DNA of 64,000 bases from a virus (IMGVR_UViG_3300022555_000011:19381-83380); one strand, 5' to 3'; counted from the stretch's first letter, positions 33,356 to 47,519 are shown. The notes: a model not told the origin generated them from the sequence alone. Translations and numbers: made by a program.

Positions 33356-33619
33356 ATGGAATTTGAAGTAGAAGTAAAAGTAGTAGAAGAACCAATTATT
33401 AGTGATATAATAATGCCAGAGGAAAAACCTGATGAATTTATAGAATTTGATGAAGAACTGATCAAAGAGTTAGGTTATAAATCTTTAAGATATAGTATAA
33501 AAACATTTGATCACAGATTGATTTTGACTTCTGTAGATGACGAAGATATAGTTGTACCTAATGAATTGGTGGAAGATAAGTTGAAAGAATTATTGAATAT
33601 ACTACATAGTAAAAAATAA
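33356..33619 (+). CDS. 87-aa hypothetical protein, paralog of 34685-34948
   Basis: Starts MEFEVEVKVVEEPIIS. Confidence 0.7.
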   Translation: MEFEVEVKVVEEPIISDIIMPEEKPDEFIEFDEELIKELGYKSLRYSIKTFDHRLILTSVDDEDIVVPNELVEDKLKELLNILHSKK

Positions 33620-34684: not shown

Positions 34685-34948
34685 ATGGAATTTGAAGTAG
34701 AAGTAAAAGTAATAGAAGAGCCGATTATTAGTGAAATAATACTACCAGAGGAGCATCCTGATGTGATTATTGATTTTGATAATGAAATGTCTAAAGAATT
34801 AGGTTATAAATCTTTTAGATATAATGTAAATATATCTAATTATAGATTAATTTTTACAACGATTAATGACGAAGAAATAGTTGTGCCTAATGAACTTGTT
34901 GAAATAAAATTAAAAGAAGTTTTAGATATATTACATAGTAAGATGTAG
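34685..34948 (+). CDS. 87-aa hypothetical protein, paralog of 33356-33619
   Basis: Starts MEFEVEVKVIEEPIIS. Confidence 0.7.
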   Translation: MEFEVEVKVIEEPIISEIILPEEHPDVIIDFDNEMSKELGYKSFRYNVNISNYRLIFTTINDEEIVVPNELVEIKLKEVLDILHSKM

Positions 34949-35072: not shown

Positions 35073-36041
35073 ATGGCAAAGACAACAAAACCATCACAAA
35101 AAAAATCAAATGATTTTGATTTCTCAAAAATATCTACACTTATAGAGAATATTTCAAAGAAAGATATAATTTCAATTGAAGATTTTGAGAAAGAAAAAAC
35201 ATTTATTTCAACAGGCATTCATATCGTAGATGCACTTTTATCAAAAAGTATTTTAAAAGGTGGAATACCTAATAACAAAATCACAATTATCGCTGGTCCA
35301 AAACAAACTGGTAAATCATTTATCTCTTTAAATATAGCAAGAAATGCACAAAAGATGGGGTATAATATTGTATGGATTGATACAGAATATTCTATTGAAA
35401 AAGCTGATTTTGATATGTATGGTATTGATACTTCAGACGCTAACAAATTTATGTTGATTAGAACTAATATCGTTGAGAAGATAAAAATGTTTATGATGTC
35501 GTTTTTAGATGCTTTGCAAAAATTAAAAGACACAGGAGTTGATGTGTCAAAAACTATATTCTTCTTAGATTCCATTGGTATGTTATCCAGTGAAAAGGAA
35601 AAAGAAGATACACTCAAATTGAATGTCAAACAAGATATGACACGTGCAAAACAAATCAAATCTCTTGTTAGACTTATTACAAATGATTTAGGATATTTGA
35701 ATATTCCATTAGTAGCAACAAACCACGTTTATTTATGTTTAACTGCTGGACATAAAGTAATAAAGGCTGATGGTAATTCAGAATTAATAGAGAATTTAAT
35801 GATAGGTGATTCTATACAAACATTAGAAGGAAATAAAACTATTGTAAAAACTGTTGAATATCCTAAAAGTCCAATAATTCAAATAACATTGGAAACTGGT
35901 GAGAAAATTAAATGCACTCCACAACATAGATTTTTAGTAAAACCTGATTGGGTTAGCGACGAAAATAATGATTGTTGGAAAAAGGCGGAAGATTTAACTG
36001 ATAAAGATATAATTTTAGCGGTTGATGAAACTATTAAATAA
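35073..36041 (+). CDS. recA: UvsX/RecA recombinase N-terminal fragment + split-intein N part (101 aa, 35736-36038)
   Basis: Walker A GPKQTGKS, WIDTE, FFLDSIG, VATNHVYL then CLTAGHKV...CTPQH (blocks A and B). Confidence 0.9.
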   Translation: MAKTTKPSQKKSNDFDFSKISTLIENISKKDIISIEDFEKEKTFISTGIHIVDALLSKSILKGGIPNNKITIIAGPKQTGKSFISLNIARNAQKMGYNIVWIDTEYSIEKADFDMYGIDTSDANKFMLIRTNIVEKIKMFMMSFLDALQKLKDTGVDVSKTIFFLDSIGMLSSEKEKEDTLKLNVKQDMTRAKQIKSLVRLITNDLGYLNIPLVATNHVYLCLTAGHKVIKADGNSELIENLMIGDSIQTLEGNKTIVKTVEYPKSPIIQITLETGEKIKCTPQHRFLVKPDWVSDENNDCWKKAEDLTDKDIILAVDETIK

Positions 36042-36099
36042 ACTTTATTAGTGGAAATAAACGAGTTTTTTATTTTTATATATAGAATAAAAAAAGATT

Positions 36100-37329
36100 A
36101 TGGAATTAATAGAAAAAATTAAAAATAGTAAAAGTATGTCTGGCATCATTAGAATGATTAATGGTGATGATAAATTAAATGATATTGTTATAGATAGAAC
36201 AAAGTATTTAAATGATGCTTCTATACATGAAAGGTTATTTAATATAAAAAATGATTTTTTTGATAATACTGTTTGTTCCATATGTAATGTAAGTTTTTTA
36301 GAATGGAATGTTAAATATAATAAATATAAAAATACTTGTTCTCATAAAGAATGTAAAACAAAATTTTTGATGATAAATAAAGATCCAGAGTCAGAAAAAT
36401 TAAGAAGAGAAAAAATAAGCGAAACACAAAAAAATAAAACTGAAGAAGAAAAACAAATAATTTTAGACAAGATTAAAAAAACAAATATTAAAAAATTTGG
36501 TAAAGATTCTTATGCAAAAACACAAAAATTTAAAAATGATATGATTGATAAATATGGATATATTAGTGCATTTGAATTGAAAGAAACCCATGATAAGTCA
36601 AAATTAACTTTACTTAAAAAATATAATTGTGATCACAATTCTAAGATAGATGAAGTGAAAAATAATAAAAAAATTACATATTTAAATAATTATGGTGTTG
36701 ATAACCCCACAAAATCTATAGTTGTAAAAGATAAAATTATAAAAACAAATAATGAAAAGTATGGTGGCAACTCACCTATGAATAATGATGAAGTGAAAGA
36801 AAAAGCAAGAGAAACATATCAATCAAATTATATTGATAATGAATTAAAAATGAATGAGTTGGTTTCCAGAAGAGAAGATACGATGTTTAAAAAGTATGGT
36901 GTTAATTATTGGATACAAGATAGTAAAAACTTAGATAAATTAGTTAAAAAAACAACTTATAAAAAATATCTTATACATGATAAAGAATATTTTTTGCAAG
37001 GATATGAAGATTGTGTTCTATTTGATATTTTATTAAAAAAGTATGATATTAATGATATTTGTATTTTTAATGATGATATAGAAAAATACACAGGTAAAAT
37101 ATATTATAGAGTTGAAAATAAAAAACACAAATATTATCCAGATTTTTATATAATAAGTGAGAATAAAATATATGAAGTTAAATCTGAATATACGTATAAT
37201 TCAGATATTATTATAAATACTCTAAAAAAAGATGCTTGCATTAATAACGGAATAGATTTTGAGTTTATTATATTGTCTAAAAAAGAATATAATAAATGGA
37301 AAAATAATAAAAATAATAAAAATATATGA
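36100..37329 (+). CDS. free-standing PD-(D/E)XK-type endonuclease inside fractured recA
   Basis: KYGVDNP-type repeats; C-terminal YYPDFYI...IYEVKS. Confidence 0.75.
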   Translation: MELIEKIKNSKSMSGIIRMINGDDKLNDIVIDRTKYLNDASIHERLFNIKNDFFDNTVCSICNVSFLEWNVKYNKYKNTCSHKECKTKFLMINKDPESEKLRREKISETQKNKTEEEKQIILDKIKKTNIKKFGKDSYAKTQKFKNDMIDKYGYISAFELKETHDKSKLTLLKKYNCDHNSKIDEVKNNKKITYLNNYGVDNPTKSIVVKDKIIKTNNEKYGGNSPMNNDEVKEKARETYQSNYIDNELKMNELVSRREDTMFKKYGVNYWIQDSKNLDKLVKKTTYKKYLIHDKEYFLQGYEDCVLFDILLKKYDINDICIFNDDIEKYTGKIYYRVENKKHKYYPDFYIISENKIYEVKSEYTYNSDIIINTLKKDACINNGIDFEFIILSKKEYNKWKNNKNNKNI

Positions 37330-38036
37330 AAAATTTTAAAGAAATTAGAGTATCTAAAGTAGAATATTTAGATGAATTAGAAACTACATATGATATTCAA
37401 GTAGAAGGTGTGCATCATTATATATTAGAAGGTGGTATAGTTTCGCATAATACTCAAGACATGTTTCCACAAACTATTATGTCTGGTGGTGAAGGTTTAT
37501 ATTATGCTGCTAGTGTTATTTTATTATTGAGTGACGCAAAATTAAAAACTGGTGAAGAAGATGAAATGGATCTTGGTAGATCAGGTTCAATTATCACCGC
37601 TCGTTCAGCAAAAAATAGATTGGCAAAACCAAAGAAAGTTAAATTTGAAATTGATCATAGTAAAGGTATTAACCCTTATAAGGGATTAGATTTATTCTGC
37701 ACTTTTGAAAATTTCCCTAAAATTGGTGTTGCTCAGGTTAAGAAAGAAGTTGACAAAGAGACTGGAGAAATTACATACAAACCTTCTAATCGTTGGTATG
37801 TTAGACATTTAGATAAAACATTATCAGCAAACCAAATTTTTAATAGAAAAGTTTTTAATCCAGAAGTATTAAAGGCTATGGAACCAATAATTTATGATTA
37901 TTTCAAATATCCATCATATGATGAGTGTCTTAGGGAATTGGAAGATATTGACGAGAGATTAAATGAAATTGAAGATAAGGATATGTTATCTTCAGAAGAA
38001 TTTAATCTTGAAGATGACGCAAATCTCTTCAATTAA
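37326..38036 (+). CDS. recA: split-intein C part (42 aa, 37326-37451) + UvsX/RecA C-terminal fragment
   Basis: TYDIQVEGVHHYILEGGIVSHN|TQDMFPQTIMSGGEGLYYAAS...KNR. Confidence 0.9.
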   Translation: MKNFKEIRVSKVEYLDELETTYDIQVEGVHHYILEGGIVSHNTQDMFPQTIMSGGEGLYYAASVILLLSDAKLKTGEEDEMDLGRSGSIITARSAKNRLAKPKKVKFEIDHSKGINPYKGLDLFCTFENFPKIGVAQVKKEVDKETGEITYKPSNRWYVRHLDKTLSANQIFNRKVFNPEVLKAMEPIIYDYFKYPSYDECLRELEDIDERLNEIEDKDMLSSEEFNLEDDANLFN

Positions 38037-39446: not shown

Positions 39447-40127
39447 ATGACACAAAGGAAGAATTTAGATTTAGATGATGATTTAGAAAATAATTTAGAT
39501 GAGGAATTAGGTGCAGACTTTATTGATGATGTTATTATAGATGAAGAATTTGGTAACGGAGATATTGTAGAATCTATTGAGTCTGATGAAGATATAGATG
39601 ATGATTCTGAAGAAGATGTGATGTTTAAGTTTAATACAAATAATCATAAACTTGAAGGAAAACACTCATTAACAAGAGATACAATATTTAAAGGTAAACT
39701 TGATGACAATTCTGAACAATCCGATTATTTTAGTGGTAATCAGGAAGAATCTTATAGTTATGATGGATTACCAATAGAAGTTGGCTCTAATTATGAATTT
39801 GAAAGTAAATATCATGAAGAATATGTTGGTAGACTTAATTTATCAAGAGATGTTTATGATTTATTAAACGAAAAAACAGAGTTGGATTTTTCTTCAAATA
39901 GAAGAAAACCCAATAAACAAGCATTTAACGACTATTATAAGATGTTGTTGGATAATATTGGCAAAGAATATACTAAATCAGAAATCTTTGTCGAATTATC
40001 TTATTATTTTACAGATAACATATTCAATATGTTTAAGTTATTAGATAAAGAATATGCAACACAAATTATAGTAGAGCTAAAACAAAGTGGATATTTGAGT
40101 CATCTCAGTAATATCAACTTCATATAA
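39447..40127 (+). CDS. acidic hypothetical protein
   Basis: 226-aa D/E-rich ORF between helicase and RNR. Confidence 0.65.
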   Translation: MTQRKNLDLDDDLENNLDEELGADFIDDVIIDEEFGNGDIVESIESDEDIDDDSEEDVMFKFNTNNHKLEGKHSLTRDTIFKGKLDDNSEQSDYFSGNQEESYSYDGLPIEVGSNYEFESKYHEEYVGRLNLSRDVYDLLNEKTELDFSSNRRKPNKQAFNDYYKMLLDNIGKEYTKSEIFVELSYYFTDNIFNMFKLLDKEYATQIIVELKQSGYLSHLSNINFI

Positions 40128-40144
40128 AAAATAAAAGAAATAAC

Positions 40145-41008
40145 ATGGCTTTTTTTAAGAGAGACGAAGCATACTACGCATCATTAAAATATTTTAAGGG
40201 AGATACTTTAGCATCTGATGTATGGGTTAATAAATATGCGTTAAAAGACACAAAAAGTGGCGAGACTGTTTATTACGAACGTACGCCAGATGATATGCAT
40301 TGGAGACTTGCAAGAGAAATACATAGGATAGAAGCTAAATACCAAAATCCTTTATCAGAACAATTTTTATTTGATTTGATGAAAGATTTTAAGTATATAA
40401 TTCCACAAGGCTCTCCAATGTCAGGTATTGGAAATAATAGACAAGTTGTATCATTATCAAATTGTTTTGTTATAGGTAATCCTTCTGATTCATATGGTTC
40501 AATTATGCAAGTTGATGAAGAACAAATTCAACTTATGAAACGTAGAGGTGGTGTTGGACATGACCTTTCTCATATTAGACCTGCTGGAATGCCAGTTAAA
40601 AATTCAGCATTAACTTCAACAGGACTTGTACCTTTTATGAATAGATATTCTAATTCTACAAATGAAGTGGCTCAAGGTGGTAGGCGAGGCGCATTAATGT
40701 TAACTTGTTTTTCGCCTGATACATTTGTTCTTACAGATTATGGATGGGATCAAATAAAGAATGTTATAAATAAAATAAAATCTGGAATTGAAATTAAATC
40801 TTGGACACATGATGGGTTTAAGAATATTTTAGATATTCAAGAATTTAAAAATAGAGATGTTTATGAAATAGAATGTGAAAATGATAAGATCATAATTGTT
40901 ACTCCAGATCATGAATTTGTTGTAAGAAATATGAATTCAGGTGAGGAATATTTGAAGGCTATAATTGACGTAGATGTATTAATAGAAGAATTAATATTTT
41001 ATTTTTAA
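40145..41008 (+). CDS. nrdJ: class II ribonucleotide reductase N-terminal fragment + split-intein N part (100 aa, 40706-41005)
   Basis: SLSNCF, GGVGHDLS.IRP, RRGALMLT then CFSPDTFV...TPDH. Confidence 0.9.
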   Translation: MAFFKRDEAYYASLKYFKGDTLASDVWVNKYALKDTKSGETVYYERTPDDMHWRLAREIHRIEAKYQNPLSEQFLFDLMKDFKYIIPQGSPMSGIGNNRQVVSLSNCFVIGNPSDSYGSIMQVDEEQIQLMKRRGGVGHDLSHIRPAGMPVKNSALTSTGLVPFMNRYSNSTNEVAQGGRRGALMLTCFSPDTFVLTDYGWDQIKNVINKIKSGIEIKSWTHDGFKNILDIQEFKNRDVYEIECENDKIIIVTPDHEFVVRNMNSGEEYLKAIIDVDVLIEELIFYF

Positions 41009-41078
41009 TTTTATTTTCATTTTTCCAGTTTTTTTATTTTATATATACAAATAAAACATCCAGATGAAAATAAAATTA
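41006..41078 (+). promoter_or_regulatory. 15-bp hairpin sequestering the endonuclease ATG, TATATATAC between the arms
   Basis: taattttattttcat (41006-41020) pairs with ATGaaaataaaatta (41064-41078). Confidence 0.7.
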
Positions 41079-42053
41079 TTAAAAATTGAGGAGGACAGAA
41101 GAAGAATATTGTATAAAATAGATCAAGAAGAGTACATCATTAATGGTAAGATATTTAAAGTAAAAAAAAGCACTGCTAATCTTAGTAGTTATTTAAATTC
41201 TATTGATAGTTCATTAATTAAAATTTTAAATTTATCAGTAGATTGTAAATGTAAAAATTGTTTAGAGTATATTACTAGAAATAGATTTGAAAGAAATGTT
41301 TTTATTGCATATAAATTTTGCAATGAGTGTGATAAAAGAAATGTTTTGAATAAATATAATATTGTTAAGTGTATATGTTGTAATAAAGAAATTTTATATA
41401 AAGATATTAAATATTCTACTTGTGGAAATAAAAAATGTTTAGAAGAATATAGAAATATTATAAATAATAAAATAAAAGAAACACATTGGACTTTAAATGA
41501 TCACAAAAATGATATAACGATTAAAAAATCTATAAAAAGAAAAGAAAATGATATTAAATTTTGTAGAAAATATGTGGCTTGGAATAAAGATAAAACTGGA
41601 ATATATTCTAAAGAGACAATTGAAAAATTAAGAAATGCTGCCATTAATCAAATGAAAAATGGTAAAATTAAAAAAACAGGAATTGAGACAATTTTTGAAG
41701 AATTATTAAAATCTAATAATATTGATTATACATACTCGTTTATATATGAAAATAGGCAATTTGATTTTATTATAAAAGATTATAATATTGTTGTTGAAAT
41801 TCAGGGGGATTACTGGCATTCTAATCCTAAATTTTGGGATGTTTATGATAATGATAAAACAAAAAAGAAATTGTATGAGACTCAGATAATGAAAATAAAA
41901 GATGATGTAATTAAAAAGAATATTATAGAAAGATCAAAATATGATTTTGTTTCATTTTGGGAATATGATATTCATAATAATATTTCAGAAGTTGAAAAAA
42001 CTTTATTTGAATTAATTAATAAAAATAAAATTAAAAATGGAAAAAACTTATAG
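41064..42053 (+). CDS. free-standing Vsr/DUF559-like endonuclease inside fractured nrdJ
   Basis: Zn-ribbon N-terminus; IETIFEELL...FDFII...EIQGDYWH...FWEYDI. Confidence 0.78.
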   Translation: MKIKLLKIEEDRRRILYKIDQEEYIINGKIFKVKKSTANLSSYLNSIDSSLIKILNLSVDCKCKNCLEYITRNRFERNVFIAYKFCNECDKRNVLNKYNIVKCICCNKEILYKDIKYSTCGNKKCLEEYRNIINNKIKETHWTLNDHKNDITIKKSIKRKENDIKFCRKYVAWNKDKTGIYSKETIEKLRNAAINQMKNGKIKKTGIETIFEELLKSNNIDYTYSFIYENRQFDFIIKDYNIVVEIQGDYWHSNPKFWDVYDNDKTKKKLYETQIMKIKDDVIKKNIIERSKYDFVSFWEYDIHNNISEVEKTLFELINKNKIKNGKNL

Positions 42054-45000
42054 TAAAATACGTAAAATAACAAAAAAAGGTAAAAGTGATGTATATGATT
42101 TTACGGTGGAAGACACACATAGAATATTGGCAAATAATTTTTATACTTCAAATTGCTCCGTAAAACATCCAGATTCTGAAAGTTTTATTGATGCAAAATT
42201 AGAAGATGGTAAAGTAACTGGTGCAAATATTTCAGTTAAAATTGCAGATGACTTTATGGAAGCCGCATTAAATGCTAAAATGTACACACAATTATTTCCA
42301 ATAGATTCAAAAAATCCTATTCATACTAAAGAAATTGATGCTCAAAAATTGTGGAAGAAAATTATTCATAATGCCTGGAAATCTGCGGAGCCAGGTGTTT
42401 TATTTTGGGATACAGTAATGAGAGAATCTGTGCCAGATTGTTATCAAGATTATGGCTTTACAACAATTTCAACAAATCCTTGCATTATTGGTGATTCTTT
42501 AATTGCTGTTGCTGATGGTAGAAATGCAGTTTCTATAAGACAATTAACAGAAGAAGGTAAAGATATTCCAGTATATAGTACAAATAGTGAAGGTAAAATT
42601 GAAATAAAATGGGGTAGAAATCCTAGATTGACTGGAAAAAATAAAGAAGTATGGAAATTAACTTTAGATGATGATTCTGTTTTTGTCGCAACCCCAGATC
42701 ATAGAGTTTATTTGAATAATAATACATATAAAGAATTAAAAGATTTGTTACCAGGTGAATCAATATCATCTTTTTATTCTTTTAATTCTAATAAGGGATA
42801 TAGACAAATTGCACAAACTGGTGATAAAATGATCGGAGGTAGATATAGAAATAGAAGACAGTATAGACTTATTCATGAGTTTCATAAAGGTAAAGACATT
42901 GATTATAAATTGTTTAATATACATCATAAAGATTTCGATAATCAAAATGATATGATAGATAATTTAGAATTGATGACGAGAGATGATCATAAATTTTTAC
43001 ATTCTGGAAGAATTAAAGGTAAAAATAATCCATATTTTAGAATGACTGATGAATGGAAAGCTAATTTTGCTTCACATCCAGGAGAAAAGAATTCTAAATA
43101 TATTAATGTTTCTAATGATGAAATGATAATTCATGGTAGAGAATTATTTAAACAGGAAGGAAAATTTACAGCACGAGGATGGATTAAGTATTCAAAAGAA
43201 CATAATTTGCCACAATCATTATGGAACGAATTTAGATTTAAGACATTTGCAGATTTTAAAAACCAAGTAGTAAATAATCATAAAGTTGTGAGTGTTGAAT
43301 TTTTTGGATATGATGATGTATATAATATTACAGTTGATGATAATCACAATTATAATGTTATTACAAAAACTGAGGATGATAGATATATAACATCAGGTGG
43401 AATTTGCGTAAAAAATTGTGGAGAAATAACTCTTTGTCCTTATGATTCTTGTAGATTATTGGCTATAAACCTTTATAGTTTTGTAGATGAACCTTTTACA
43501 AAAAATGCAAAATTTAATTGGGATAAATTCAAGGAATATGTTGTTTATGCTGAAAGGATTATGGATGATATTATTGATCTTGAGATAGAAAAAATTAATA
43601 TGATCTTGGATAAAATTGCATCAGATCCAGAAAATGAAGAAACTAAAAGAGTTGAAAGAGAAACTTGGATTAAGATTATGAATATGACTTTAAATGGTCG
43701 TAGAACTGGTTTGGGTGTAACTGCTGAAGGTGATATGTTAGCTGCTCTTGGCTTAAGATATGGTACACCAGATGCAACAGATTTTTCAACAGAAGTTCAT
43801 AAAGTATTGGCGATAAATGCTTATAAATCATCTGCAATTATGGCAAAAGAACGTGGCTCATTCCCTATTTATGATTATGAAAGAGAAGTTAGTAATCCTT
43901 TTGTTCAAAGATTAAAAGATGCTGATCCAGAATTAGATATGATGTTAAAACAATATGGTAGAAGAAATATTGCACTTTTGACTATTGCACCAACAGGAAC
44001 AGTTTCACTAATGACACAAACAACTTCAGGTATCGAACCTGCATACTTGGTTTCTTATAGAAGAAGAAGAAAGATTAATCCTACTGATAAAGGTGGTAGA
44101 GTTGATTTTATAGATGCAGAAGGTGTAAAATGGGAAGAATATAATGTCTTTCATCATAAGTTTGAAGTTTGGTTAGAGGTTAACGGTTATAATATTGATG
44201 AAGTAAAAGCAATGAAAGATTCTGAATTAAAATTAATTATTGAAAAATCTCCATACTATAAAGCAACTTCTAATGATGTTGACTGGGTTGAAAAGGTTAG
44301 AATGCAAGGTATGATTCAAAAATATGTTGACCATTCTATTTCAGTAACAGTTAACTTGCCTAATAATGTAACTGAAGAAATTGTTTCTAAAGTATATGAA
44401 ATGGGCTGGAAGTCTGGATGTAAAGGTATGACAGTTTATCGTGATGGTTCTCGTCAAGGAGTTATTATGTCAAATGAAGGAACAACTCAAAATGTTGTTA
44501 AAGAAGTACAAGAGAACAACGCAAAACCAAGACCAAAAAGACTTGAATGTGAAGTTGTTAGATTTACTAATAATAAAGAAAAATGGGTTGGTGTTCTTGG
44601 ATTGATGGTTGATGAAAAAGGTCAAAAATATCCTTATGAGATATTCACTGGATTACTTGATGAATTTTATATTCCTCCTAGTATTGAAAAAGGTGAAATT
44701 ATTAAGCATAAAGAAGATGGTGAAAAAAGTAGATATGATTTTGTTTACAAGGACAAAGATGGTTATAATGTTACAATGGAAGGCTTAAATAGAGCTTTTA
44801 ACAGAGAATTTTGGAACACAAGTAAACTATTGTCAGCATTTTTAAGACATAGAATACACCTTCCTAGTGTGATTAATCTTATTGATAGTTTACAAATGAA
44901 TTTAGATAATGAAGCAGCTTTTGGTACTTGGAAATCTGGTGTGAAAAGAATTATTAAGAAATATATAAATTCTATCGTTGTTGGCGAATCTTGTCCAGAA

Positions 45001-45084
45001 TGTGGAGCTACAGGACATGATTTAGTGTATGAAAATGGCTGTAAGACTTGTAAGGCGTGCGGTTGGGCGAAATGTTCAGATTAA
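42037..45084 (+). CDS. nrdJ: split-intein C part (39 aa) + class II RNR C-terminal fragment containing a second intein
   Basis: VYDFTVEDTHRILANNFYTSN|CSVKHPD; NP|intein|CGE; RRTGLG, IAPTGT; C-terminal Zn ribbon. Confidence 0.92.
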   Translation: MEKTYSKIRKITKKGKSDVYDFTVEDTHRILANNFYTSNCSVKHPDSESFIDAKLEDGKVTGANISVKIADDFMEAALNAKMYTQLFPIDSKNPIHTKEIDAQKLWKKIIHNAWKSAEPGVLFWDTVMRESVPDCYQDYGFTTISTNPCIIGDSLIAVADGRNAVSIRQLTEEGKDIPVYSTNSEGKIEIKWGRNPRLTGKNKEVWKLTLDDDSVFVATPDHRVYLNNNTYKELKDLLPGESISSFYSFNSNKGYRQIAQTGDKMIGGRYRNRRQYRLIHEFHKGKDIDYKLFNIHHKDFDNQNDMIDNLELMTRDDHKFLHSGRIKGKNNPYFRMTDEWKANFASHPGEKNSKYINVSNDEMIIHGRELFKQEGKFTARGWIKYSKEHNLPQSLWNEFRFKTFADFKNQVVNNHKVVSVEFFGYDDVYNITVDDNHNYNVITKTEDDRYITSGGICVKNCGEITLCPYDSCRLLAINLYSFVDEPFTKNAKFNWDKFKEYVVYAERIMDDIIDLEIEKINMILDKIASDPENEETKRVERETWIKIMNMTLNGRRTGLGVTAEGDMLAALGLRYGTPDATDFSTEVHKVLAINAYKSSAIMAKERGSFPIYDYEREVSNPFVQRLKDADPELDMMLKQYGRRNIALLTIAPTGTVSLMTQTTSGIEPAYLVSYRRRRKINPTDKGGRVDFIDAEGVKWEEYNVFHHKFEVWLEVNGYNIDEVKAMKDSELKLIIEKSPYYKATSNDVDWVEKVRMQGMIQKYVDHSISVTVNLPNNVTEEIVSKVYEMGWKSGCKGMTVYRDGSRQGVIMSNEGTTQNVVKEVQENNAKPRPKRLECEVVRFTNNKEKWVGVLGLMVDEKGQKYPYEIFTGLLDEFYIPPSIEKGEIIKHKEDGEKSRYDFVYKDKDGYNVTMEGLNRAFNREFWNTSKLLSAFLRHRIHLPSVINLIDSLQMNLDNEAAFGTWKSGVKRIIKKYINSIVVGESCPECGATGHDLVYENGCKTCKACGWAKCSD
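42481..43416 (+). mobile_element. contiguous intein (312 aa) with HNH endonuclease at the RNR catalytic NP|CGE site
   Basis: Starts CIIGDSLI; TPDH; IHHKDFDNQNDMIDNL; ends VYNITVDDNHN...CVKN|C. Confidence 0.9.
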
Positions 45085-45091
45085 TTAAAAA

Positions 45092-45170
45092 TAAACCACA
45101 TATTTCACATTTAAGACAACCATATTTTTATATATAGAATATGAGAAAAAAATGTGAAATATGTGGTTTA
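45092..45170 (+). promoter_or_regulatory. 21-bp perfect hairpin spanning the promoter and start of the endonuclease gene
   Basis: taaaccacatatttcacattt (45092-45112) pairs with aaatgtgaaatatgtggttta (45150-45170); tatatatag at 45129. Confidence 0.75.
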
Positions 45171-46160
45171 GATTTTTCATATACAACAGGAAAATTTACA
45201 ATTCATTTAAATGAAGAACATAATATCTCTTTAAGAGATTATATTATTCAATATGAGTTAAGTGGACAAACACCAAAATGTAAATGTGGCTATTGTGATG
45301 ATGATGCACCTTTTTTTAGAGGTAAATTTCTTGATAGAATTGGTAAACATCAAAAATATGAATGGTTGAAATATCAGTATATTAAAAAATATGGTACACC
45401 AAAATGTGAAGTGTGCGGTGATGATGTTAAATGGAATAGAGATGTCCCGAATAGATATTGTTCACCAAAATGTTTTCCAAATAGATGGAACCAAGAAAAA
45501 ATAGATATTACTGTTAAAGAAAGATATAATGTAAATAATGTTTCTTTTTTAGATGATGTTAAAAATAAAATATCTAATAGTAATAAAGAAAATTATAAAT
45601 ATAATAAAAAAGAAATAGTAGAAAAATTTTCTACTACTTGTTTGGATAGATTTGGTGTTGATTTTCCAGTTAAATCTTCTGATGTTCAAGATAAAATGAA
45701 AATAACATATTTTAAAAATTTAGGAGTTGATCATCCGTCTAAATTATTAATAAATAGACAGAATTCAAGTAAAAGAATGATAAAGAATAATTATGAATTT
45801 AATTTCACTAATTGTTATAATATCAAAAGATATAAAGAAACTGAATTGTATTATCAAAGTTTATATGAATATCATTTTTTAGAATATTGTGAAAAAAAGA
45901 ATATTATTGATAGAGTTAAAAATGGAAATATTTATAATTTTTTACCAGAAGAATCTGATTATGGATTTAGAACTATTACAGATTTTTGTATAGATGATAT
46001 TGAGATAGAAATAAAATCAACATATATTTTAGAAAAACAAGGTGGTGATTTTGTTATAGATATAAAAAGAAGAGCTGTTGAAAGTACAGGTAAAAAATAC
46101 TTATTAATTCTGGATAAAAAATATTCAGAATTTGAAAAATTAATTAACAATAATGAATGA
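45141..46160 (+). CDS. free-standing PD-(D/E)XK-type endonuclease
   Basis: Zn ribbons, GVDHPS-type repeats; C-terminal TDFCIDDIEIEIKS. Confidence 0.7.
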   Translation: MRKKCEICGLDFSYTTGKFTIHLNEEHNISLRDYIIQYELSGQTPKCKCGYCDDDAPFFRGKFLDRIGKHQKYEWLKYQYIKKYGTPKCEVCGDDVKWNRDVPNRYCSPKCFPNRWNQEKIDITVKERYNVNNVSFLDDVKNKISNSNKENYKYNKKEIVEKFSTTCLDRFGVDFPVKSSDVQDKMKITYFKNLGVDHPSKLLINRQNSSKRMIKNNYEFNFTNCYNIKRYKETELYYQSLYEYHFLEYCEKKNIIDRVKNGNIYNFLPEESDYGFRTITDFCIDDIEIEIKSTYILEKQGGDFVIDIKRRAVESTGKKYLLILDKKYSEFEKLINNNE

Positions 46161-46338
46161 TATTTATGAATATAAAGGAAACCAATATAGAATATTTGCA
46201 GAATCTAAAATGAAAGTTGATGGTGTGTGGATAAAGTGTATTATTTATCAAACTCTTTATTATAATGAAGATGGTTGGATATGGGTTAGAAATAGTGAAG
46301 AGTTTTTTAAACTATTTAAAAGAGTTGAAGAGAAATGA
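46153..46338 (+). CDS. DUF1653-like protein
   Basis: YKGNQY...IIYQTLY...WVRNSEEF. Confidence 0.65.
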   Translation: MNDIYEYKGNQYRIFAESKMKVDGVWIKCIIYQTLYYNEDGWIWVRNSEEFFKLFKRVEEK

Positions 46339-47519
46339 TGGAAATAAACTTTGTTACTAGATTTAAGGAAGATTATATATTTTTAGATATTGTTGGTCTT
46401 TCTGGTGATACAAGAGAATTTTTTGTAGAATATATTGATTTGAACACTAATGAAGTTATATATTCAGATATGCTTAAAATAAACTACTGGTCAAAAATAA
46501 ATTCTAATCCATCTATGAATATTTTGATTAGAGTTACATCAGAAAATCAAATAGTTTTTGAAAGAAGACAAGATCAGAAATTTAATAGAGTCTATATTAA
46601 AATTGGCTCAAATTCTTTGGGTGATAATATAGCTTGGATGTCTTGTATTGAAGAGTATAAAAAATTAAATAATGTAGATGTCGTTGTTTATTCAAATCAT
46701 AGGCATTTATTTGATAAGGCATATCCAGATTTTATTTTTACTGATATAGTAAATCCAGATTATATTAATGATGTTGATAAGAAAATTAAAATTGATTATG
46801 GTCCAGAATTATATAGAATAAATAATATTCCAGCATCAGATCAATGGTTTATAGATACTGAGAAATATGATAATAATTTGGATTATTTTGATTATAGAAA
46901 ATACGCTTTACAATCAATAGCAAATATAACTTTAAATATTCCTGATATAGAATATGTTTCAAAGATAAATATACCAGAAGATAATGGTCCAAAAGTTAAA
47001 GGTAAATATGTTGTTGTTGCAATTCAATCTACATCTCAACTTAAATATTGGAATAATCCATTTGGTTGGGAAAGAGTTTTTGATTTTTTAGGAAGAAATG
47101 GCTACAAAATTGTTTTAATTGATAAGAATAAAAATTTTGGTGTACTTGGAAGTTTTAACCAAGCACCAAAATCTAAATATGTCATAGACAAAACTGGGAA
47201 TTTTCCATTATCTGAAAGGATTACTGATATTAAGTATGCTGATATGATGATTACAATTAGTTCAGGCTTAGCTTGGGTTTCATGGGCTGTTGGTACTCCA
47301 GTAGTTATGATTAGTGGCTTTACAAAACCTTTTTTGGAGTTTAAATCTAATTGTGTCAGAATACATAATCCTAATGTTTGTAATGGTTGCTGGAATGATC
47401 CATTAATAACTTATGATGCAGCTAATTGGTTATTTTGTCCAAGAAAACAAGATTTTATATGTTCTAAAGCTATACAACCAAAAGATGTTATTGATGGATT
47501 TAGAAAATTAATGAAATAA
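46335..47519 (+). CDS. Aah/TibC-like (strand-loop-strand) heptosyltransferase, GT9-related
   Basis: SLGDNIAW, QSTSQLKYWNNPFGW, ISSGLAWVSWA, ISGFT, CNGCW...CP...C. Confidence 0.78.
   Translation: MMEINFVTRFKEDYIFLDIVGLSGDTREFFVEYIDLNTNEVIYSDMLKINYWSKINSNPSMNILIRVTSENQIVFERRQDQKFNRVYIKIGSNSLGDNIAWMSCIEEYKKLNNVDVVVYSNHRHLFDKAYPDFIFTDIVNPDYINDVDKKIKIDYGPELYRINNIPASDQWFIDTEKYDNNLDYFDYRKYALQSIANITLNIPDIEYVSKINIPEDNGPKVKGKYVVVAIQSTSQLKYWNNPFGWERVFDFLGRNGYKIVLIDKNKNFGVLGSFNQAPKSKYVIDKTGNFPLSERITDIKYADMMITISSGLAWVSWAVGTPVVMISGFTKPFLEFKSNCVRIHNPNVCNGCWNDPLITYDAANWLFCPRKQDFICSKAIQPKDVIDGFRKLMK

Follow-up and report, generated by a model that had tools for sequence, protein, structure and literature searches.

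A fractured nrdJ gene of a huge uncultured phage predicted to need both trans- and cis-splicing

How would a phage obtain a working ribonucleotide reductase (RNR) from a gene that is broken in two by one intein and interrupted again by another at the codon for its radical cysteine? The question is raised by the nrdJ locus in a 64,000-nt stretch of viral DNA (IMGVR_UViG_3300022555_000011:19381-83380), hereafter the window, in which all coordinates are counted from the first letter. The window has a G+C content of ~25% and belongs to a 147-kb IMG/VR virus record for which CheckV estimates a completeness of 21%; its nearest named relatives are uncultured 'megaphage' records of 460-735 kb. Our reading is that a huge uncultured phage with AT-rich DNA has a fractured nrdJ, whose products must be spliced once in trans and once in cis before a single enzyme results; we put the probability of this reading at about 0.8. 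The locus itself is real and very probably functional. An earlier note on this DNA had proposed the same requirement, and the coordinates and counts given there were all correct.

One enzyme divided between two genes

The region 40145-46160 is occupied by four open reading frames (ORFs) on the same strand, with all frames open, and two of these together encode the reductase. The N-half (40145-41008, + strand) encodes 287 aa, namely 187 NrdJ residues followed by the 100-aa N-terminal half of a split intein (IntN), while the C-half (42037-45084, + strand) encodes 1015 aa, made up of the 39-aa C-terminal half of the split intein (IntC), the remaining exteins and a contiguous 312-aa HNH intein. 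The N-extein (40145..40705, 187 aa) matches Pfam Ribonuc_red_lgN/lgC, aligns with PDB 1xjk and ends in ...GGRRGALMLT. The middle extein (42154..42480, + strand, 109 aa), which also aligns with 1xjk, runs from the +1 Cys of the split intein (CSVKHPD...) to ...ISTNP and directly adjoins both neighbouring exteins in the alleles L005-L008, and the C-extein (43417..45084, + strand, 555 aa plus stop) starts at the thiyl-radical Cys (CGEITLCPYDSC...) and closes with a Cys-rich tail of the form CxxC...CxxC.

Alleles without any interruption, L005-L008, have the three extein parts in one ORF with nothing between them, at 93%, 92% and 89% identity to those of the window, and therefore both inserts are exact and in frame. 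The nrdJ gene of LR745206 is also a single intact ORF, of 883 aa. Without its two inteins the window protein has 851 aa, and compared with L005-L008 and LR745206 the two adjacent, collinear ORFs cover one enzyme with no extein residue lost or duplicated.

The source being a metagenome assembly, the arrangement might instead be a chimeric contig put together from fragments of different nrdJ alleles. However, two ENA samples gave independent assemblies of the same N-half, 96-100% identical and with the same genes upstream of it (L027, L028), and an artefact is therefore extremely unlikely. Collinear N-half, endonuclease and C-half loci were also found again in JGI, ENA, Logan and NCBI assemblies, and a viral-contig scan yielded 22 related loci.

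For the class of the enzyme, the intein-free L007 allele, with parts 89-93% identical to those of the window, was taken to stand in for the spliced window protein. It scores 539.9 bits with the equivalog model TIGR02504 NrdJ_Z (cut-off 399.95) and 199.4 bits with the class I RNR model (cut-off 341), and the window's C-extein alone reaches 308.6 bits over positions 282-604 of TIGR02504. Judged by its sequence, the gene is thus one for the class II reductase NrdJ. The best solved relative is NrdJ of Thermotoga maritima (1xjk), and alignment with it reveals equivalents of Cys134, Asn320, Cys322, Glu324 and Cys333, the Cys of NPCGE falling on Cys322 and that of the DSC motif on Cys333. Cys322 is the thiyl-radical residue of the T. 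maritima enzyme, in agreement with the earlier identification of the +1 Cys of the HNH intein as the radical cysteine of RNRs. The equivalent of Cys134 is encoded in the N-half and those of Cys322 and Cys333 in the C-half. Neither precursor should therefore be active as made, because the catalytic residues span both genes and because the HNH intein parts Asn-Pro from the radical Cys.

A gene in this condition could also be decaying or already non-functional, overrun by selfish elements, with deoxyribonucleoside triphosphates (dNTPs) supplied by the host RNR or by an RNR encoded in the unsequenced part of the phage genome. The record covers only ~21% of the estimated genome, the HNH intein is shortened, and the intein-overrun nrdA genes of Campylobacter phages have been suggested to be degenerating (PMC3653736), all of which would suit such an account. 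Against it, all four reading frames are open, every catalytic extein residue that was checked is intact, the exteins are 89-93% identical to those of intact alleles, the architecture persists down to ~40% extein identity, and no RNR other than nrdJ is present in related megaphage genome records; hence we consider decay improbable. In the 147-kb record itself no second RNR was found, only the two nrdJ pieces, and no class III enzyme either. Since nrdJ is the sole RNR in this record and in two long megaphage relatives, the 634-kb LR745206 and the 462-kb LR756500 (in which nrdJ is itself fractured, at APTG/C, the slash marking the insertion point here and below), these findings suggest that the phage depends on the spliced NrdJ product.

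The two inteins

The split intein lies at RRGALMLT/CSVKHPD, as had been noted earlier, and maps between T. maritima Ile214 and Leu215, right after the loop with Lys202, Gln203 and Arg207, specificity loop 2. IntN (40706..41008, + strand, 100 aa plus stop) has Cys1, a block B T-P-D-H at intein residues 66-69 and an acidic/hydrophobic tail, ...EELIFYF. IntC (42037..42153, + strand, 39 aa) ends in ...THRILANNFYTSN, so that TSN, with no penultimate His, precedes the +1 Cys; it overlaps the 3' end of the intervening endonuclease gene by 17 nt in a different frame. Together the halves carry the signature of fractured genes, i.e., Cys1, block B T..H, terminal Asn and +1 Cys.

This intein belongs to a sizeable family. 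When the IntN region was used as the query of a word-indexed search, 81 clusters of ~285-aa N-halves proved to have a homologous IntN in this position, the lowest identity being 50%. Across an alignment of 22 diverged N-halves, Cys1 (C188), W-T-H, V-T-x-D-H (T253, H256), EEYLK and EEL.F are invariant or nearly so, and the IntC core FTV...HRI.AN.FYTSN/C is invariant in seven loci whose exteins are 38-60% identical to those of the window. Genomic contexts were fetched for seven loci, and every complete one consists of an N-half, a homologous endonuclease gene (35-61% identical) and a C-half. IntN is about as conserved as the adjoining N-extein (47-75% vs 48-71% identity), which argues for purifying selection on splicing. 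Further, the conservation of TSN/C across the family indicates that the absent penultimate His is a family trait and not a defect of the window copy.

Structure prediction agrees with an association of the two halves. IntN, modelled with 10 extein residues, and IntC gave a complex score of 0.82, vs 0.02 for the best of three controls, on a scale whose pass mark is reached by 58 of 80 solved complexes and by 2 of 110 mismatched pairs; the runs have at least 81% of contacts in common, and the partner's predicted local distance difference test (pLDDT) value is at least 68. Split-intein complexes being already solved, this score may in part reflect recall of the fold by the predictor. Among PDB sequences, IntN has no significant match to any solved intein (best E 0.23), and it is therefore not assignable by sequence to the NrdJ-1, gp41-1 or DnaE split-intein families; the family is apparently undescribed in the literature that we searched. 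In an exhaustive IntN-only search, further matches were to contiguous mini-inteins that distant RNRs (P0228, P0233) carry in this position and to related N-inteins that form the C-terminal end of other proteins. These results fit the model of Dassa et al. (2009, PMC2677866), according to which mini-inteins are invaded by free-standing endonuclease genes.

The same predicted binding would be expected if the intein halves were a docking module only, the two halves of the reductase forming an active two-chain enzyme non-covalently, in the way that short peptides derived from the element serve NrdA of phage Aeh1, which is split by mobE. Such assembly is on record for a split phage RNR (Friedrich et al., 2007; PMC3045599), and IntC lacks the penultimate His. 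However, docking needs none of the residues that serve splicing only, and these (Cys1, block B Thr and His, the terminal Asn and the +1 Cys) are invariant; an unspliced HINT domain of ~140 residues would stay beside specificity loop 2; and the HNH intein must in any case still splice in cis, since it parts Asn-Pro from the thiyl Cys. We therefore think a two-chain enzyme quite improbable, and prefer covalent joining of the halves by trans-splicing.

At the position of the split intein's +1 residue (window 42154-42156, within LML[TS]-C-S), most intein-free alleles of close relatives (L005-L009, L011-L024) have Cys. Val, Ile or Leu stands there in phage alleles that are more distant and in the motif variants most often met among 120 listed homologues, some of them labelled bacterial. 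Judging from these alignments, Cys at an empty split site could be the scar of former intein occupancy followed by precise loss.

The second interruption, the contiguous HNH intein (42481..43416, + strand, 312 aa), is inserted exactly at NP/CGE, its boundaries being ...STNP/CIIGD... and ...CVKN/CGEITL.... It has Cys1, a block B T-P-D-H, an HNH motif and a block F of the form DVYNITVDDNH, and it ends in VKN; with block B T..H, block F Asp/His, the terminal Asn and the +1 Cys, it shows the features of class 1 inteins. It matches Pfam Intein_splicing (E 3.3e-12), HNH_3 (24.9 bits vs a cut-off of 24.8) and TIGR01445 (33.7 bits vs a cut-off of 24.5). According to Dassa et al. (2009, PMC2677866), NP/C is the most frequent contiguous-intein site in class I and II RNRs.

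L005-L008 lack the HNH intein; L009, L026, L029 and L033 have homologues of 460-467 aa at NP/C, and one at NP/C in L035 was detected by tblastn. The window copy is a short form that lacks a CxxC...C..C zinc-ribbon module of ~150 aa found in relatives of 460-480 aa, where it sits between the HNH domain and block F (window 42481-43416 vs L029 9429-10808), although the HNH motif and blocks A, B, F and G are still there. Short forms with a C[VI]KN end also occur in clusters P0096, P0098, P0106, P0109 and P0148. No HNH-type intein has a penultimate His, the ends including QEN, QLN, TRQ and VKN; other intein types at the NP/C site, of ~130-370 aa (e.g., 162 and 362 aa), end in VHN (L031, L022). A 1164-aa C-half with IntC, NrdJ and HNH intein (P0095) bears the NCBI name 'HNH endonuclease [Trichloromonas sp.]', and this record looks like a phage contig that was binned into a bacterial metagenome-assembled genome and named after the intein's nuclease.

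How common is the double interruption? We sorted 59 cluster representatives of C-halves that start with the window's IntC by their insert at NP/C: 26 have none, 25 have an intein of the window's HNH type and eight have another intein type. An intein at NP/C is thus present in 33 of the 59 clusters, and the window's layout is found again in L029/L030, L033 and L035 (an NCBI assembly), with HNH inteins combined with other split sites in L009 and L026. The description of the combination as unusual in the earlier note is accordingly rejected, as is its term 'nested', the inteins lying at separate sites, 109 extein residues apart.

Other alleles are interrupted differently, and some of them more often. 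For example, L033 (7001-13940) has nrdJ in three genes, with a second split intein at APTG/C in addition to the HNH intein and a Vsr-like endonuclease gene with each of its two split inteins, and would by its gene order need two trans-splicing events and one cis-splicing event. L026 (6995-13843) combines a LAGLIDADG contiguous intein at VAQ/SGRRGA, 10 residues upstream of the window's split site, with the HNH intein at NP/C and a split intein at APAG/C, and L009 combines the HNH intein with a split at APTG/C. In P0205 a contiguous intein and a split intein are just 10 residues apart. The C-half homologues P0113, P0117 and P0120 end near C-extein residue 312 and continue into a tail of ~110 aa, and these tails suggest a further candidate split-intein site in nrdJ. 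In huge AT-rich phages nrdJ thus emerges as a hot spot for inteins, which use at least five sites in it, and its alleles need one, two or three splicing events; this makes it a good natural system for the study of the homing cycle.

Free-standing endonuclease genes and the wider locus

Between the split-intein halves lies a gene (41064..42053, + strand) for a protein of 329 aa, consisting of a Cys-rich N-terminal region and a C-terminal nuclease domain, which had earlier been called a Vsr-like endonuclease. This description holds at the level of the fold. The protein matches Pfam Vsr PF03852 (E 3.8e-4, 20.7 bits) and TIGR00632 (E 6.8e-5, 23.1 bits) below the curated cut-offs of 27 and 97.85, respectively, and an identity as the Vsr repair enzyme is therefore rejected. 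A single-sequence search of the PDB gave only chance zinc-ribbon matches, whereas a profile of 11 homologues matches Escherichia coli Vsr (1cw0) over the C-terminal 125 residues (E 0.0022). The best PDB matches of its AlphaFold2 model (mean pLDDT 76.7) are I-Bth0305I (3r3p, template modelling score by target 0.82) and Vsr 1cw0, with E 2e-3 and probability 1.00. D234, E245, G248, D249, W251, H252, W299, E300 and D302 are invariant in the homologues. We class the protein as a predicted homing endonuclease of the Vsr-like (I-Bth0305I-type) family.

The start codon of this gene is covered by a predicted RNA hairpin with a 17-bp stem (41006-41022 / 41062-41078, + strand), which has a minimum free energy (MFE) of -13.9 kcal/mol and a z of -3.5, with none of 200 shuffles as good, and whose loop contains TATATATAC, a late-promoter-like motif. 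L029, L031 and L033 have comparable hairpins with TATATATA in the loop, though these are weak by mononucleotide-shuffle z, and those before the endonuclease start in the distant relatives L034 and L035 are not convincing. A hairpin with a late-promoter motif at the endonuclease start has been described for fractured genes and for Aeh1 mobE (PMC2677866).

Immediately 3' of nrdJ there follows, as also reported before, a second free-standing endonuclease gene (45141..46160, + strand), which encodes a protein of 339 aa of the DUF7487 type (Pfam DUF7487, E 1.1e-11; phrog_3339 'homing endonuclease', E 2.1e-15). Its start is enclosed by a 21-bp hairpin (45092..45170, + strand; MFE -30.8 kcal/mol, z -7.9) with TATATATAG in the loop. 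Copies that are 63% identical occupy the same place in L014, L018 and L023 (9636-10634 in the latter), and the match in L021 (6328-7125) is broken into two pieces that overlap, so that this copy may be frameshifted. Nothing matching the window's DUF7487 endonuclease follows nrdJ in L006, L007 or L009, nor is one in the ORF list of L009.

The window contains a second fractured gene, UvsX/RecA (35073-38036), in which an N-half with an N-intein (35073-36041) is followed by a DUF7487 endonuclease gene of 409 aa (36100-37329) and by a C-intein with the RecA C-half (37326-38036, junction ...GGIVSHN/TQDM). RecA is intact (402 aa) in the relative L029 and fractured in L027 and L031. Directly upstream of the fractured uvsX, two paralogous 87-aa ORFs (33356-33619 and 34685-34948), with near-identical N-termini (MEFEVEVKV.EEPIIS...) and C-termini, flank an ORF of 178 aa. 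An Rfam scan of the whole window matched no family, and therefore no group I intron is involved. A scan of 39900-46400 for sigma-70 promoters and terminators gave nothing above shuffles, such a scan being uninformative in DNA this AT-rich.

Predicted maturation and comparison with known systems

Two independent mobile elements would have invaded nrdJ. The first would be the split intein after specificity loop 2, with a free-standing Vsr-like endonuclease gene in the place where the endonuclease domain of an intein usually sits, and the second would be the one-piece HNH intein directly before the thiyl-radical cysteine of NPCGE. Two polypeptides would be produced, N-extein-IntN (287 aa) and IntC-extein-HNH intein-extein (1015 aa). 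The HNH intein would excise in cis by the class 1 route, through a thioester at Cys1, transfer to the +1 Cys and Asn cyclisation, to give ...STNP-CGEITL..., and IntN and IntC would associate and trans-splice, joining ...RRGALMLT to CSVKHPD.... The product would be an NrdJ of 851 aa with active-site cysteines from both genes. The endonucleases would spread the elements into empty alleles during co-infection, and their translation would probably be limited by the hairpins hiding their start codons, as in phage Aeh1 mobE.

That both splicing events are needed is supported in silico by the empty alleles with their precise junctions, the anatomy of the locus, the conserved splicing residues, the predicted IntN-IntC complex and the NrdJ score of the L007 allele. 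Some points weigh against it. Splicing and its order, the activity of the enzyme and homing are all things that we infer; a second RNR possibly lies elsewhere, the record covering only ~21% of the estimated genome; the endonuclease of the shortened HNH intein may no longer home; and the penultimate His is absent from both inteins (Ser in TSN, Lys in VKN). This His (block G:6) usually assists Asn cyclisation, a role that is usual and not obligatory, and its absence lowers the prior for fast splicing. However, the non-His ends are conserved across each intein family, which counters the objection, and splicing is documented for inteins that lack this His (Chen, Benner and Perler, 2000, as cited in PMC4031507).

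It is also conceivable, though we regard it as a long shot, that the inteins act as a post-translational gate on dNTP synthesis and are not just selfish passengers, because both use Cys nucleophiles at critical points of the enzyme, one at the thiyl-radical Cys and the other at the residue after specificity loop 2. If so, the redox state, or how the expression of the two halves is timed relative to each other, could decide whether the only known RNR of the phage matures, conditional protein splicing would be kept by selection in this phage clade, and Cys at the split site of intein-free relatives would record repeated gain and loss of the gate. Apart from any such role, the fastest natural split inteins available to protein chemists (gp41-1, NrdJ-1 and IMPDH-1) come from fractured genes, and the present family, with at least 81 N-half clusters, a TSN end and Cys at +1, could supply new orthogonal ligation tools.

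The architecture, the endonuclease family and the insertion site at the thiyl Cys are already published, and the combination is common among relatives. Contiguous inteins and split NrdA inteins are known from the position directly N-terminal to the thiyl-radical Cys of RNRs, the site of the window's 312-aa HNH intein, which differs from them in its HNH nuclease and in a Lys-Asn end (Gln-Asn, Leu-Asn or Arg-Gln in its relatives) in place of His-Asn. The split dnaE of Trichodesmium erythraeum likewise yields one protein that needs trans-splicing of a split intein and cis-splicing of contiguous inteins. By contrast with nrdJ, the host protein there is DNA polymerase III alpha, and the cyanobacterial halves are unlinked, with no endonuclease gene between them. 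Multiple inteins in these dnaE genes are reported by Liu and Yang (2003, J Biol Chem 278:26315). An additional in-frame intein has also been described for the DnaE-1 locus of the Global Ocean Sampling data.

Among endonucleases, the window's 329-aa protein shares the signature D...E..GD.WH...WE.D with its best structural match, I-Bth0305I (PDB 3R3P; Taylor et al.). However, the gene for I-Bth0305I lies within a recA group I intron, whereas the window's gene is free-standing between intein halves, and the window's protein has a different, Cys-rich N-terminal region and no sequence match to I-Bth0305I in a single-sequence search. The nrdA gene of Aeromonas phage Aeh1 (Friedrich et al., 2007; Crona et al., 2011, PMC3045599) similarly codes for the large subunit of an RNR and is interrupted by the gene of a homing endonuclease, mobE, whose translation is held back by a hairpin. 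Unlike the window's nrdJ, it has no intein, and its halves assemble non-covalently.

The closest precedents for the fractured nrdJ, which the earlier note had rightly placed among phage metagenomes, are NrdJ-1 and NrdJ-2 from the Global Ocean Sampling data (Dassa, London, Stoddard, Schueler-Furman and Pietrokovski, 2009, PMC2677866). These are also class II RNR genes of phage origin broken by a split intein, with a free-standing endonuclease gene between the halves, a hairpin before its start and an overlap of its 3' end with the start of the downstream half. No second intein is reported for these loci in the text that we read, and their split site lies one residue after the thiyl Cys, whereas that of the window, LMLT/C, lies 109 extein residues before it. 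As far as our literature search shows, the LMLT/C split site is a new allele.

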